Shown here: positions 1,189 to 4,890 of the stretch, in pieces
Layout: the number at the start of each line of letters is the position of its first letter
How positions within the stretch are numbered: position 1 is the stretch's first letter
Virus record (IMG/VR): IMGVR_UViG_2802429242_000007
DNA from: a virus
Taxonomy: Duplodnaviria; Heunggongvirae; Uroviricota; Caudoviricetes
Direction: 5' to 3' (one strand)
DNA length: 9,683 bases
Program-made: the position numbers and the translations under genes
Notes under the pieces: generated by a model
Databases searched by the model: none
What the model was told of the DNA's origin: nothing
The model's input: only the letters and a program-made list of their open reading frames with translations

Positions 1189-1533
1189 TCAGAACTCTTC
1201 GATATTCCAGCCACCACCTGCTTTCTTTGGTTTAACCGTTACCCCGATGATTCGGAACGGATACTGATCTGCGGCGACTTTGGTTTTCACCCTGGCGTCG
1301 TCGGTCCAGAAACCTTTCACTTCGTGCAGTTCCATCTCTCCGGTGGCGAGCATCACAGCGAAATCGGGCGTATAAAACGTGTTGTCAGCCAGCCGCAGCT
1401 TGATACCCTCGAACCGATACCAGGCGACTTCCCCTGCACGTTTACGCTGCTCAAGGTGCTGGCAATACGCAGATTCTGTTTTGTTCATCTGGCCTGTTTT
1501 GAGTCGACCAAGAGCCTGTATCTGTTTTCTCAT
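1189..1533 (-). CDS. small PD-(D/E)XK-type nuclease, DUF1064-like (114 aa)
   Basis: 114-aa ORF with a D...E-x-K signature (YTPDFAVMLATGEMELHEVKG) typical of restriction-endonuclease-fold phage nucleases; ATG 1533..1531 with AGAGGT 7 nt upstream. Family is from memory, not searched. Confidence 0.5.
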   Translation of the reverse strand: MRKQIQALGRLKTGQMNKTESAYCQHLEQRKRAGEVAWYRFEGIKLRLADNTFYTPDFAVMLATGEMELHEVKGFWTDDARVKTKVAADQYPFRIIGVTVKPKKAGGGWNIEEF

Positions 1534-1536
1534 GAT

Positions 1537-1614
1537 TTACCTCTAAGGTAATTAAAAACCACATAAGACACGAAATCAATAGATCTAAGAATATTTTGTT
1601 ACCCATTAGGTAAC
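1537..1614 (-). promoter_or_regulatory. promoter-operator cassette for the distal leftward operon: operator sites 1537-1551 and 1598-1614 flanking a sigma70-like promoter
   Basis: Perfect inverted repeats TTACC-tctaa-GGTAA (1537-1551) and GTTACC-catta-GGTAAC (1598-1614), starts 62 bp apart. On the minus strand, -35 TTGATT (1579..1574), 17-bp spacer, -10 TTTAAT (1556..1551); the downstream operator abuts the -10. Confidence 0.6.
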
Positions 1615-1625
1615 TATTGAGGCGT

Positions 1626-1647
1626 AAAAAAATGCGCTATCGCGCTG
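1626..1647 (-). terminator. weak candidate intrinsic terminator after the P-like gene
   Basis: On the minus strand a 4-bp GC stem (GCGC-gata-GCGC, plus 1634-1645) is followed by a run of 7 T (plus A-run 1626-1632). The stem is short, so confidence is low. Confidence 0.3.
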
Positions 1648-1650
1648 GTA

Positions 1651-2436
1651 TTACTTGATAAATCCTGCTGCCTTTCCTCGCCTGTATTCCTCCATCAGCC
1701 ACTGCGCCGGTGTTATTCCCCCCAGGGTGGCGGCGTTAGGCATGCACCCGAAACTTCGCCCTGGTGGATGGTAAACATCTCTCCCTGTGTCCGGAGGCGT
1801 ACTCATGGGTTCTGGCTTTGCCTGTATGCTGATCACCGGATCGGGTATCTGCTGTCCGGAAGCCACCTTTTTCGCCCAATCATCGAGCAGCCTGCGCGCG
1901 TGTTTCTCAACCTCAATCTCGCTAAGCTGGCGCTGATACATTGCACGGCGGGTATCACATACGACCCAGTACATAACCGGATGCCGCCACGGGAATCTTT
2001 CGGGACCACCAGGATATAAACTTTTTTCCTTGCTGTACCGGTGAAACTCCGCCATCACATCGTCAATGGTGACGCCAAGAACCATCTTGCTGTCTTTACA
2101 CCACTTGATGAATTGCCCTGGCGACGGCCAGAACGGAGACTCACTGGCGCGGGCGTGGCGCATACCAGCAGAAACCTGTTCACGGGTTCGGATCCCCCCT
2201 TCGGCAAACGCAGCAATCCACTGCTGTTTTGCAGCAACTTCCTGCTCTGGCGTCTTCAGGTTGGTTACCACTGCCGCCGGAAAGAGTTGTTTCAGCTGTT
2301 TGAAAAGGGCATCAACAAGCCTCTCTGCTGACATGTTCACCACGTTGTCATTGTTGGTGTACTGATGCTCATAACCTGACATGCGAGAAAGGGCTTCTCC
2401 GTCACGGTTTTGTATCGCGGTAAAAACGTTGTTCAC
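1651..2436 (-). CDS. lambda P-like replication protein (helicase loader)
   Basis: Translation contains ...FPAAVVTNLKTPEQEVAAKQQWIAAFAEGGIRTREQVSAGMRHARASESPFWPSPGQFIKWCK..., closely matching the remembered conserved core of lambda P (FLPSPGQF..WC). Start preferred at GTG 2436..2434 (GTGA overlap with the O-like stop) with a perfect GGAGGA 6 nt upstream, rather than the track's ATG at 2451. Confidence 0.85.
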   Translation of the reverse strand: MNNVFTAIQNRDGEALSRMSGYEHQYTNNDNVVNMSAERLVDALFKQLKQLFPAAVVTNLKTPEQEVAAKQQWIAAFAEGGIRTREQVSAGMRHARASESPFWPSPGQFIKWCKDSKMVLGVTIDDVMAEFHRYSKEKSLYPGGPERFPWRHPVMYWVVCDTRRAMYQRQLSEIEVEKHARRLLDDWAKKVASGQQIPDPVISIQAKPEPMSTPPDTGRDVYHPPGRSFGCMPNAATLGGITPAQWLMEEYRRGKAAGFIK

Positions 2437-3248
2437 AAGAAATCCTCCCATGCTTCAGGGCTGTTCCAGTGCGGAACGTTGTTATCAGGTAATGTTGATT
2501 GCTTCTGTCTGCTAATCTGCAGCCGCCTTGCCAGCTTCTGCTCCCACTGTGCCTGATGGTATGCCTTACCCTCAGCCATCCAGTAAATTCTGAACTCTGC
2601 AAGTTCCTGTGCCGTTGGCAGACTGTCCAGGTAGATCCCCTGCAATGAGCTTTTCCGAAGAAAGTCATCTGATGGCTGCCATTGTTCATGCATGACAAAT
2701 TTGCCTAATTGCCCTGGCCCACCAGGAGGAACAAAGTTATTCATCACGGCGTTGTTTGCACCGGGGTCATGAGGCACAGAATCCCCGCTTTTTGTCCTGC
2801 TCTCCCTCTCTTGGTTAAATGACTGGTTATATGACTGGTTCTGGATCCCGTTTTTGGGATCATTCAACATCCCGTTTTTGGGATCATTCAACATCCCGTT
2901 TTTGGGTATATTCCCGTTTTCGGGAACATTGCCGTTTTCGGGTTCATTGCTCCCTTTCCGGTTGCCTTTAATGTTCCCGTTTTTGGTTATATTAAGAGAG
3001 AAAACCCGCACTCTTTTCGTCGCTCCCTTTCTCTCTCCGGTATCTGAAATAAGCCCCATTTTCATGAGCAATATAAGCCCGGCCTGCACGGTTTTTTTAT
3101 TCAGGCAAGTGTCTTTAACGAGGCGTTCTATGCTGGGGTAGCAGAGGTTATATTCATCGGCTCTGTCAGCCATCGAGAGCAGTATGAGCTTTAATGACGA
3201 GCTACCTGGATCTGTCTCCCAGGCCCAATCTGTTGCATGTCTGCTCAT
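2433..3248 (-). CDS. O-like replication initiator: N-terminal winged-HTH, Asn/Gly/Pro-rich repeat linker, C-terminal DnaT-like domain
   Basis: N-terminus WAWETDPGSSSLKLILLSMADRADEYNLCYPSIERLVKDTCLNKKTVQAGLILLMKMGLI resembles the replisome-organizer HTH; C-terminus ...MHEQWQPSDDFLRKSSLQGIYLDSLPTAQELAEFRIYWMAEGKAYHQAQWEQKLARRL resembles the DnaT C-terminal domain. ATG 3248..3246 with GGAG 7 nt upstream. The iteron array lies inside the gene, as ori-lambda lies inside O. Confidence 0.8.
   Translation of the reverse strand: MSRHATDWAWETDPGSSSLKLILLSMADRADEYNLCYPSIERLVKDTCLNKKTVQAGLILLMKMGLISDTGERKGATKRVRVFSLNITKNGNIKGNRKGSNEPENGNVPENGNIPKNGMLNDPKNGMLNDPKNGIQNQSYNQSFNQERESRTKSGDSVPHDPGANNAVMNNFVPPGGPGQLGKFVMHEQWQPSDDFLRKSSLQGIYLDSLPTAQELAEFRIYWMAEGKAYHQAQWEQKLARRLQISRQKQSTLPDNNVPHWNSPEAWEDFL
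2845..2990. repeat. iteron array (candidate origin of replication) inside the O-like gene
   Basis: 24-bp direct repeats start at 2845, 2869 and 2893 (the first two identical: atcccgtttttgggatcattcaac). Degenerate copies follow at 2912-2925 (TCCCGTTTTCGGGA, itself palindromic), 2931-2942 and 2975-2986. Core motif is CCCGTTTT(T/C)GGG. Confidence 0.75.
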
Positions 3249-3263
3249 GATTAATCTCCGCTA

Positions 3264-3464
3264 TCAGCTTGAATGTTGTGGGGAGGAATTAATCATGATC
3301 TGCTTAATCTCTGCCCTGATGCGACGGTTTGATTCCATGGTGCACTCAACACAGTGTCCGTTGTAAACCCAGCGTTCACTGTCATGTCCGTGCTTACATG
3401 GTTTTCCGGTGTAGTAGCGTTTAAGTCCGCGCTTTGCGGCATCAATACGTGTAATGATTTCCAT
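3264..3464 (-). CDS. small zinc-finger (Cys/His cluster) phage early protein, 66 aa
   Basis: MEIITRIDAAKRGLKRYYTGKPCKHGHDSERWVYNGHCVEC... carries a C-x-H-x-H...C-x2-C cluster. It sits between the Cro-like gene and the O-like gene, the position of cII in lambda. Start chosen at ATG 3464..3462; the track's TTG start at 3527 adds a hydrophobic low-complexity extension. Function not assigned. Confidence 0.5.
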   Translation of the reverse strand: MEIITRIDAAKRGLKRYYTGKPCKHGHDSERWVYNGHCVECTMESNRRIRAEIKQIMINSSPQHSS

Positions 3465-3544
3465 GGTAAGCCCTGTTATTAGTATTGGGATTACGGTTAT
3501 TTTGTGCTGACACAAAAAAAAGATCAACCATATTTGGTTTTTTA

Positions 3545-3559
3545 TTACCTTTGAGGTAC
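3545..3559. promoter_or_regulatory. operator-like site (TTACC-tttga-GGTAc) between the terminator and the zinc-finger gene
   Basis: A 9/10 match to the TTACC-N5-GGTAA motif. On the minus strand it lies just upstream of a possible promoter (-35 TTGATC, 17-bp spacer, -10 CAAAAT). Confidence 0.4.
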
Positions 3560-3565
3560 GAATAG

Positions 3566-3593
3566 ATATGAAAAGACCGCCGGATGGCGGTCT
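3566..3593 (-). terminator. intrinsic terminator downstream of the Cro-like gene (tR1-like position)
   Basis: On the minus strand, 21 nt after the stop: AGACCGCC-atcc-GGCGGTCT (perfect 8-bp GC-rich stem, plus 3574-3593) followed by TTTTCATAT. Confidence 0.6.
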
Positions 3594-3614
3594 ACAGAGG
3601 GTTGTGGCTGGATA

Positions 3615-3845
3615 TCATGAGTAGAAGAAGTATGCCAGTTCTGCTTTTGAGCGCAGCCATTGTCTTGTTTTACAGGCTTTAAAAAGCCCATTCATCAATA
3701 CCTTACCTGGCATTTTGCGCTTACCTGTTAAGTGAGTCTGGATATAGTGACTCGTCGTTCCGGCTTCCTGTGCGAAGGCTTCACGCTCATCCGGAGTAAG
3801 TGCAAGCCAGTGCTTTTTGAAATCGAAATGTCCGTTATCGCTCAT
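3615..3845 (-). CDS. Cro/CII-like small HTH DNA-binding regulator, 76 aa
   Basis: First gene of the leftward operon, divergent from the repressor. An HTH-like segment (REAFAQEAGTTSHYIQTHLTGKRKMPGKVL) is visible. Functional role is inferred from position. Confidence 0.6.
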   Translation of the reverse strand: MSDNGHFDFKKHWLALTPDEREAFAQEAGTTSHYIQTHLTGKRKMPGKVLMNGLFKACKTRQWLRSKAELAYFFYS

Positions 3846-3870
3846 AGCTATTGCCTGATATTTATTTCAG

Positions 3871-3944
3871 ATAATAAATATTCACCTATAAGGTAACAAA
3901 AATCAAGGATAGTTACCCACGAGGTGCATTTACCTGTTGGGTAA
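3871..3944. promoter_or_regulatory. divergent control region: three operator sites plus a leftward PR-like promoter
   Basis: Sites TcACC-tataa-GGTAA (3882-3896), TTACC-cacga-GGTgc (3913-3927) and TTACC-tgttg-GGTAA (3930-3944). Leftward promoter on the minus strand: -35 TTGTTA (3899..3894), 17-bp spacer, -10 TATTAT (3876..3871), overlapping the first site. A weaker rightward promoter may overlap the third site. Confidence 0.55.
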
Positions 3945-3999
3945 TATTGCTTTAAATTGAATCATCTTCTGATTCAGATATGAGGCGATTTTCCAGAAA

Positions 4000-4584
4000 A
4001 TGAAAAGTATCCAGGACGTCCGCAGGCAAAATCTCAACGACTTGATCGACCGTGAATTCAATGGTGTTCAGACGCGGATGGCTGAAAAACTTGGAACTCA
4101 GGCAAATCTGGTAAACCGCTGGGCTCTTGGCAAGAAGGTTATCGGCGACCAGGTTGCACGAAAAATTGAAGCTGCCGCCAATAAACCCCGTAACTGGCTT
4201 GATATCGATCGCTCGCTTTCTCAGGAAGGTTTTCAGCCTGTCGGCCCAAGCGACATTGGCCAGCTGGCGGCTCACAACCTGGAACGCTGGATGAGCGAAA
4301 GCCGCGACCTTTCAACACAGGGAAAACTTCACCGCGCATCCGGCGTAGCCCAGGTGACAATCAGCCGCCTGTTAAACAATGAGGTCAGCGTTTCCATTTC
4401 CACCCTGGAGAATGTTGCATCCGCATTCGGGCGTCACGGCTATGAATTACTGATTCACCCGCACGACCCTGCGACCATCAACTATGATCGCTCGCGCTAC
4501 GCATTGTTACCCGAAACCGAGAAAGCAAAGATCGAAAGTTACATTGAATTTGTCATCAACCAGAACGAAAAAAACAAACAATAA
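4000..4584 (+). CDS. CI-like immunity repressor with two XRE-type HTH domains and no S24 peptidase domain, 194 aa
   Basis: Two HTH-like segments: QTRMAEKLGTQANLVNRWALGKKVIGDQVARKIEAAANKPRNWL and LSTQGKLHRASGVAQVTISRLLNNEVSVSISTLENVASAFGRHGYEL. No Ala-Gly/Ser...Lys autocleavage module is visible. Divergent from the Cro-like gene and flanked by operator clusters. Confidence 0.7.
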   Translation: MKSIQDVRRQNLNDLIDREFNGVQTRMAEKLGTQANLVNRWALGKKVIGDQVARKIEAAANKPRNWLDIDRSLSQEGFQPVGPSDIGQLAAHNLERWMSESRDLSTQGKLHRASGVAQVTISRLLNNEVSVSISTLENVASAFGRHGYELLIHPHDPATINYDRSRYALLPETEKAKIESYIEFVINQNEKNKQ

Positions 4585-4604
4585 AACCATATTTTTCAGT
4601 AAGT

Positions 4605-4630
4605 AAGCCGCCTTATGGCGGCTTTTTTAT
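4605..4630 (+). terminator. intrinsic terminator after the repressor gene
   Basis: AAGCCGCC-ttat-GGCGGCTT (8-bp stem) followed by TTTTTTAT, 20 nt after the stop. Confidence 0.7.
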
Positions 4631-4640
4631 TGCCTATTCG

Positions 4641-4718
4641 ATTACCTAACGGGTAATTTTTTTAACTCATATCTATTGACATCAAACCATATACGCATAA
4701 TTATTACCTCAACGGTAA
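4641..4718 (+). promoter_or_regulatory. promoter-operator cassette (PL-like) for the rightward operon: operator sites 4641-4657 and 4704-4718 flanking a sigma70-like promoter
   Basis: ATTACC-taacg-GGTAAT (4641-4657) and TTACC-tcaac-GGTAA (4704-4718), starts 62 bp apart. -35 TTGACA (4676-4681), 17-bp spacer, -10 AATTAT (4699-4704). The geometry matches the 1537-1614 cassette exactly. Confidence 0.6.
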
Positions 4719-4737: not shown

Positions 4738-4890
4738 ATGCAGTGGAAAATCATCAACGGTTGGTACTGCGTTACTGCATGCGGATTCATGAGCTGGAAG
4801 TTCCGCACCTTACAGGAAGGCATTAAGTGGGCTTTCGTCAGCAAAGAAGCTCGCGATGTGGCCAACGATAACGAGATATGGGAGGGCTGA
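4738..4890 (+). CDS. small Trp/Cys-rich protein, 50 aa, first gene of the rightward operon
   Basis: ATG 4738 with GAGGT 8 nt upstream; MQWKIINGWYCVTACGFMSWKFRTLQEGIKWAFVSKEARDVANDNEIWEG. Not in the ORF track, probably because of a length cutoff. The stop lies within the next gene's ribosome-binding region. Confidence 0.45.
   Translation: MQWKIINGWYCVTACGFMSWKFRTLQEGIKWAFVSKEARDVANDNEIWEG

Follow-up and report, generated by a model that had tools for sequence, protein, structure and literature searches.

We analysed a 9,683-nucleotide stretch of phage DNA (Caudoviricetes; IMG/VR virus record IMGVR_UViG_2802429242_000007), referred to here as the window, and found that two 78-bp cassettes within it share a single arrangement, in which a predicted promoter is bracketed by two copies of the palindrome TTACC-N5-GGTAA. 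We consider it likely that both cassettes are early promoters repressed by the prophage repressor Rep, with one operator (O2) placed on the transcription start and a second (O1) acting as a helper site at -62, the two probably being held by one bridging Rep tetramer. This interpretation is carried by the operator motifs, their geometry, enrichment and conservation, and the homology of the repressor, all of which were directly observed. Megablast identified the window as the early/immunity region of a phiV10/epsilon15-like (Uetakevirus) temperate podophage prophage, 97% identical to phiV10, phiv142-3, ZX5 and PAS61. The prophage adjoins guaA in E. coli genomes; 2,563 of 5,426 complete E. coli genomes matched some part of the window, and 364 carried at least 80% of it.

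An earlier note on this DNA, made from the sequence alone, had described the two cassettes at 1537-1614 (minus strand, left) and 4641-4718 (plus strand, right), and every element was found at the coordinates given there. The layout common to both is O1, 19 bp, -35, a 17-bp spacer, -10 and O2, with the -10 and O2 overlapping by one base. The elements are as follows.

1599-1613, minus-strand reading TTACCTAATGGGTAA: left O1, a perfect site; homologue of the epsilon15 'repressor' site 35906-35922
1574-1579, minus strand: left -35, TTGATT, from direct reading of the sequence
1551-1556, minus strand: left candidate -10, TTTAAT, after a 17-bp spacer, from direct reading; weak, without the A at -11
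1537-1551, minus-strand reading TTACCTTAGAGGTAA: left O2, a perfect site, kept in all relatives
4642-4656, TTACCTAACGGGTAA: right O1, centre near -62; homologue of the epsilon15 'repressor' site 32616-32632
4676-4681, plus strand: right -35, TTGACA, from the promoter scan
4699-4704, plus strand: right -10, AATTAT, after a 17-bp spacer, from the promoter scan
4704-4718, TTACCTCAACGGTAA: right O2, centred on the predicted start near 4711; homologue of the epsilon15 site 32554-32570

Operator starts were 62 bp apart in both cassettes (1537/1599 and 4642/4704), a distance of ~5.9 helical turns, which agrees with the claim that the two operators of a pair lie on the same face of the helix. Five perfect TTACC-N5-GGTAA sites were present in the window, compared to 0.01 expected, and this number was matched in 0 of 200 shuffles; four of the five form the two pairs whose starts are exactly 62 bp apart. 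When up to two mismatches were allowed, 10 sites were found (2.65 expected). Alignment of the reverse complement of the left cassette with the right one using MAFFT introduced no gaps, and the identity, estimated by hand as roughly 60%, was measured at 49 of 78 positions (63%). Between the operators 23 of 47 positions were identical (fixed-register shuffle, P=0.005), a level attained by no more than 7 of the window's 19,274 47-mers, the self-match of the segment included. A shared 9-mer, ATCTATTGA, runs into the -35 and is present exactly twice in the window, at an equal offset in the two cassettes (0.07 expected). Genes downstream of each cassette point outward, in keeping with the description of the cassettes as outward-facing units, a description that was supported wherever sequence analysis could probe it.

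The promoter criterion was a sigma-70 -35 hexamer separated by 16-18 bp from a -10 hexamer whose second base is A and whose sixth is T. The right promoter (TTGACA-17-AATTAT, 10/12 matches) was the best sigma-70 match in the window. Thus, of the two promoters that had been claimed, the right one was called, whereas the left one (TTGATT-17-TTTAAT, 9/12) was missed by the scan because position 2 of its -10 is T and not A; the -11 A of sigma-70 -10 elements is nearly invariant. The scan returned 6 consensus matches in the window against 11.4 in shuffles, fewer than expected by chance, and the quality of a consensus match is therefore weak evidence when taken alone. For the left cassette, the conserved -35 block and the geometry point to a putative promoter. 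Its O2 carries in the right arm the Shine-Dalgarno sequence GAGG (1543-1540) of the resolvase gene that follows, and the predicted left leader is consequently ~11 nt long.

To place the cassettes in a wider context, repressor homologues were drawn from a phage collection together with one genome per species. This provided 13 relatives, namely phiV10, an E. coli prophage, epsilon15, SPC32H, Tyrion, BUCT554, two Klebsiella elements, and two Citrobacter, one Superficieibacter, one Erwinia dacicola and one Scandinavium prophage; Escherichia, Salmonella, Enterobacter, Klebsiella, Citrobacter, Superficieibacter, Erwinia and Scandinavium are thereby represented. Both cassettes were present at homologous positions in 13/13, with Rep identity to the window falling to 42% among the relatives that keep them. 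Over the 26 cassettes of these relatives, the spacing was 62 bp in 22, 63 bp in 2 and 61 bp in 2. Invariant DNA columns comprised the operator arms, the -35 block CTATTGA and a few -10 positions, with the central N5 and most of the sequence between the operators being variable. The left -10 read TTTAAT, TTAAAT or ATAAAT. In comparisons across phages, left cassettes grouped with other left cassettes and right ones with other right ones, which indicates an old duplication with both copies retained; on the same grounds, a recent gene conversion involving the two cassettes was rejected. An inverted repeat around the left O1 (TCAATAG / CTATTGA) was dismissed, being absent from relatives.

We then scanned IMG/VR for perfect operator pairs 47-77 bp apart and recovered at least 144 distinct sequences. 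Among the matches listed (144 distinct pairs), to which the counts that follow also refer, the spacing was 62 bp for 97 pairs and 63 bp for 14, with 2 more pairs at 61 bp, so that 113/144 fell at 61-63 bp; another 8 pairs were spaced at 76 bp, which matches the distance from O2 to a third site in epsilon15. The 62-bp cassettes included 95 that could be oriented, 42 of them R-type and 53 L-type. A -35 of TTGACA or TTGACT was found in 42/42 R-type cassettes, followed 17 bp later by a -10 of AATTAT, AATCAT or GATTAT in 40/42. In the L-type, TTGA[AT][ATC] occupied the left -35 offset in 53/53, and after 17 bp came mostly T[TA][TA]AAT. Immediately before the left -10 (window 1557-1563, minus strand), the L-type cassettes of all relatives share the motif TRTGG; it was ruled out as an extended -10, its register being wrong.

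Operators of this kind have been marked before. In the epsilon15 records (AY150271.2 / NC_004775.2), 'protein_bind: repressor / lysogeny' is entered at 32479, 32554, 32616 and 35906, and by our reading of the sequence these map to a third downstream site, the right O2, the right O1 (these two being 62 bp apart) and the left O1, respectively. A further perfect site, unannotated, lies 62 bp from the left O1.

The protein predicted to bind these sites is encoded between the two cassettes.

4000-4584, plus strand: rep, encoding a 194-aa prophage repressor with an N-terminal DNA-binding domain, a middle domain of helix-turn-helix (HTH) fold and a C-terminal tetramerisation region

Rep of the window is 100% identical to phiV10p40 and to the ORF21 repressor of ZX5, and matches SPC32H Rep (PDB 5d50_A) over its full length (E=4e-42). 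A Pfam search of the window Rep returned HTH families only, and the S24 peptidase domain responsible for self-cleavage was not found. The segment NLVNRW, which is taken to be the recognition helix, was invariant in six aligned Reps. Distant homologues matching the N-terminal domain of Rep only (Paraburkholderia, Hydrogenovibrio and Thiomicrospira) had no TTACC-N5-GGTAA sites. Overexpression of ORF21 in ZX5 abolished free phage and lowered holin and endolysin transcripts by 99.97-99.99%, in a study that defined no operators (PMC9782041). According to papers that cite the SPC32H structure, Rep of that phage binds DNA as a tetramer and weakly as a dimer, its DNA-binding domains are proposed to pair between different dimers, and the antirepressor Ant breaks the tetramer (PMC9638917). 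The C-terminal domain of SPC32H Rep has been assigned to the 'TetDloop' tetramerisation fold, a fold shared with Rco of plasmid pLS20, and Rco loops DNA between operators 75 bp apart (PMC9986798).

We observed that the TTACC/GGTAA half-sites are identical across phages whose Reps are just 42% identical. The central N5 was A/T-only in those cassette and switch sites of the epsilon15/SPC32H type that were read, and mixed in phiV10-type phages. Shared half-sites combined with a differing N5 raise the question of heteroimmunity between these phages, and of the means by which it might be achieved.

Beyond what the earlier note had described, a terminator was found before each cassette, together with a third, degenerate cassette, a design extending across the genus and the partial annotation in epsilon15. 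The terminators and the elements of the central region are listed below.

4605-4630, plus strand: strong intrinsic terminator of rep, just upstream of the right cassette (8-bp GC-rich stem and U-run; -21.1 kcal/mol, z=-6.1); a terminator in the phiV10 record
1626-1645, minus strand: weak terminator-like hairpin, GCGC-GAUA-GCGC plus U7, after the P gene and upstream of the left cassette (-7.4 kcal/mol, z=-2.1); a putative terminator in the phiV10 record
3882-3944: central switch between the divergent rep and Cro-like genes, with three operators (3882-3896, 3913-3927 and 3930-3944); conserved in relatives
3899-3871, minus strand: leftward promoter in the central switch, TTGTTA-17-TATTAT, from the promoter scan
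3499-3559, minus strand: third, degenerate cassette at the head of the gp40/replication operon, with O1 at 3559-3545 (1 mismatch), 17 bp, TTGATC at 3527-3522, 17 bp and CAAAAT at 3504-3499

The sequence AGCGCATTTTTTTAC of the left terminator-like hairpin was kept in all relatives. A terminator precedes the third cassette as well, giving a minus-strand unit at 3593-3499. The O2 position of this cassette is decayed in the window; Enterobacter phage BUCT554 keeps an operator with 1 mismatch abutting the -10, at a spacing of ~60 bp. An 11-mer, TCATATCTATT, occurs twice in the window, at 4667-4677 (plus strand), where it runs into the right -35, and at 3566-3576 (minus strand), where it separates the terminator of the third cassette from O1. 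Its conservation is limited to the phiV10/Tyrion/BUCT554 group, and it may be left over from recombination between cassettes or be the site of another factor.

The leftward genes are, in window order, ea-type, DUF1064 resolvase-like, replication protein P, DnaT-like initiator, 66-aa and 76-aa Cro-like. Rightward, also in window order, are the 194-aa repressor, two small genes, exonuclease, RecT, AlpA-like excisionase, PerC-like activator and MT-A70 methylase, followed by a leftward integrase. Three genes bear on the interpretation of the cassettes.

4738-4890, plus strand: first gene of the rightward operon, 50 aa; the next gene encodes 99-104 aa, then exonuclease onward
1189-1533, minus strand: first gene of the distal leftward operon, Holliday-junction-resolvase-like (Pfam DUF1064; phrog_190 'Holliday junction resolvase', E=1.7e-42)
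3615-3845, minus strand: 76-aa Cro-like candidate, gp39 homologue (phrog_35 'transcriptional repressor', E=5.6e-13), with a terminator at 3593-3574 after the gene

Based on these elements, we propose that Rep would silence both early lytic promoters in the lysogen, each unit following the terminator of the preceding operon. O2 is predicted to be centred on the transcription starts, near 4711 (plus strand) and 1544 (minus strand), and Rep bound there would therefore occlude RNA polymerase. O1, 62 bp upstream and on the same helix face, would be an auxiliary site. Since a Rep homotetramer is expected to have two pairs of DNA-binding domains, and hence two DNA-binding units, one tetramer could hold O1 and O2 together, bending the ~47 bp of promoter DNA between them and giving tight, cooperative repression. 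Cooperativity or looping at the cassettes gains plausibility from the tetrameric DNA binding of the homologous SPC32H Rep. At the right cassette, bound Rep could in addition keep transcripts of the constitutively expressed rep gene from running on into the genes for recombination and excision. The LexA-controlled antirepressor Ant would bring about induction by taking the tetramer apart and freeing all cassettes together. The right cassette, with its near-consensus promoter, would then drive the operon for recombination, excision, the activator and the methylase, and the left cassette, with its weak -10, the resolvase/ea-type operon running toward the packaging genes. The epsilon15 annotation and the conservation data suggest that Rep may bind at these exact sites, and the promoters are predicted from sequence features, least certainly on the left.

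Several points weigh against this interpretation. The 13 related phages are non-independent samples, and the IMG/VR set, for which perfect arms were demanded, cannot demonstrate that the arms are conserved. In part, the constancy of the 62-bp distance is a by-product of the 17-bp spacer and of the contact between O2 and the -10, which leaves room for variation only in the 19 bp separating O1 from the -35. The left -10, TTTAAT, is without the -11 A and was not called in the promoter scan of the window, and the left promoter may need an activator or be very weak. The stem of the left terminator hairpin is just 4 bp. A bridge of 62 bp from centre to centre would need a very tight DNA bend. In the texts that it covered, our literature search found no transcription-start, footprint or reporter data for phiV10-type phages.

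The two operators of a pair might also function independently, with O2 alone occluding the promoter and O1 either raising the local concentration of repressor or blocking upstream read-through, without a bridge or loop. This is possible, though we lean away from it. In both cassettes O1 lies directly after a terminator, which would fit a roadblock or insulator; a 62-bp loop is energetically demanding; and the third cassette, with a single good operator in the window, implies that one site can suffice. However, despite deep divergence and a variable sequence, the gap between O1 and the -35 has kept its 19-bp length in the two paralogous cassettes, and the homologous Rep, according to papers citing its structure, is a tetramer with two DNA-binding units that binds DNA poorly as a dimer.

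A second alternative concerns the left cassette, which may not contain an independent promoter and may serve as a roadblock or as the anchor of a long-range loop, the downstream genes being read from the promoter of the replication operon. The absence of the -11 A from a -10 that the scan left uncalled would be in line with this, as would the weak upstream hairpin, which makes read-through possible; in addition, the ~2.3 kb separating the cassette from the central operators resembles the lambda OL-OR distance. We nevertheless find this unlikely, as a -35-like TTGA is located at the offset of the right promoter in 53/53 L-type cassettes (among the matches listed), within the block that is best conserved outside the operators, many relatives have TAAATT or ATAAAT in the -10 region, and O2 is placed identically to that of the right promoter.

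It is also conceivable that the sites are bound mainly by a phage protein other than Rep, such as the 76-aa Cro-like product (3615-3845). That protein falls in phrog_35, 'transcriptional repressor', its gene is divergent from rep in the manner of lambda cro, and Cro and CI of lambdoid phages share operators. The epsilon15 annotation, on the other hand, gives the sites to the repressor, and NLVNRW, taken as the recognition helix, shows no variation, in parallel with the unvarying half-sites. Sharing of sites would in any case supplement Rep repression and not replace it, and we judge a predominant role for another binder to be improbable. Finally, although identity outside the operators and the -35 block is modest (the 23/47 positions at P=0.005), chance resemblance or a functionless relic of duplication is scarcely credible given five perfect sites against 0.01 expected, the retention of both cassettes with the same geometry in 13 diverged relatives despite swapped flanking genes, and the left/right clustering that speaks for an old duplication with both copies kept.

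A broader proposal can be put forward tentatively. The early, and perhaps partly the late, programme of Uetakevirus might be run from a repeated, insulated module of terminator, O1, promoter and O2, in which each pair would be clamped by one trans-paired tetramer into a ~47-bp micro-loop and Ant would open all of them at once. With a fresh Rep-controlled promoter after each terminator, re-initiation would replace antitermination of the lambda style. The micro-loop, if real, would be among the tightest natural repression loops.

Operator-like sites were also seen in the late half of phiV10 (1-26950), at 87, 105, 3252, 20497, 20877, 24692 and 26870. Most are intergenic, and their positions are the beginning of the terminase small-subunit gene, the region before p06, both flanks of p24, the interval separating oac from the lysis genes, and the vicinity of attP; three of the sites are perfect, compared to ~0.03 expected by our own estimate. 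Epsilon15 likewise has operator-like sites at the positions by the lysis genes and attP. Direct action of Rep may therefore extend to many promoters beyond the early ones.

Further observations were made on the regions around the cassettes. The gene downstream of the left cassette was always a Holliday-junction resolvase, of two unrelated types. The DUF1064/phrog_190 type was found in the window, SPC32H, Klebsiella and BUCT554, and a RuvC-like type in epsilon15 and Tyrion; in Superficieibacter, Erwinia and C. werkmanii, too, the cassette is followed by a RuvC-type 5' coding sequence, the same one. The resolvase lies at 11988-12452 in record L003 and at 1616-2080 in record L005. This swapping of resolvase type behind a conserved left cassette implies that the cassette marks a junction of gene-module exchange. 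The Scandinavium prophage (L013, 5140-5215) has both cassettes with 61-bp spacing and an extra operator with 1 mismatch inside the spacer of the right promoter. Within the DnaT-like initiator gene of the window, at 2819-2960, are tandem repeats of ~24 bp (CCCGTTTTTGGGATCATTCAACAT and variants) that encode a repeated PKNGMLND peptide and look like origin iterons. An Rfam search of the whole window found no known RNA family, and an RNA-element reading was dropped for that reason.

The finding is solid and largely ordinary, in that it extends the epsilon15 annotation and introduces no new kind of system. In the texts covered by our literature search, we found no statement of the conserved 62-bp bracket geometry, of its duplication at two or three promoters or of the terminator-plus-promoter module design, and no demonstration of looping for any Uetakevirus Rep. 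What emerges is a concrete map of how immunity may be controlled in phiV10-type prophages, one that lends itself to testing, as it specifies the promoters expected to be silenced, the expected starts and the base pairs to mutate. Phages of the phiV10 type serve as a chassis for O157 detection and engineering. In addition, the conserved 62-bp pairs offer a natural substrate for testing whether a trans-paired Rep tetramer bridges two operators.

Among known systems, epsilon15 is the closest to the window. It shares with it the genus, gene order, the palindrome (A)TTACC-N5-GGTAA(T) and the 62-bp spacing, with sites located downstream of the repressor before gp37 and between the replication and resolvase genes. 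Its record marks three right sites and only one of the two left sites, leaving promoters and geometry unmarked. The right unit has a longer leader than that of the window and an additional, third operator, located 76 bp downstream of O2, and the repressors are 42% identical. No operator annotation was found in the phiV10 records. SPC32H has operator pairs at 62 bp on both sides, as in the window. Its Rep/Ant switch (PDB 5D50, 5D4Z) operates, according to papers citing the structure, through inactivation by Ant and not by self-cleavage. The two Reps are ~42% identical, and the N5 is A/T-only in the SPC32H operators that were read, in contrast to the mixed N5 of the window.

Repressors that loop DNA through an auxiliary operator include those acting at lac O1-O3, gal OE-OI and deo. 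Like the action proposed for Rep, looping by the lac, gal, deo and Rco repressors involves a tetramer, an operator at the promoter and a second one tens of bp away in helical phase; a distance of 62 bp would rank among the shorter natural loops. The operators of Rco are arrays of direct repeats, unlike the single palindromes of the window.

In lambda, there are three adjacent operators per promoter, CI has a self-cleaving S24 domain and forms octamers that loop DNA, and N mediates antitermination. The window departs from this plan in that two sites 62 bp apart bracket each promoter, the repressor is without an S24 domain, and a fresh repressible promoter follows each terminator. No N-like antiterminator gene was recognised in the window, where small genes of unknown function remain. 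The likeness to lambda lies in repressor sites that overlap early promoters, with cooperative multi-site binding in lambda, and in the order of genes. On one side come a repressor, a terminator and a co-directional promoter for recombination and excision, so that the right cassette corresponds in position to PL/OL; on the other are a cro-like gene, replication genes and a resolvase/nin-like region.

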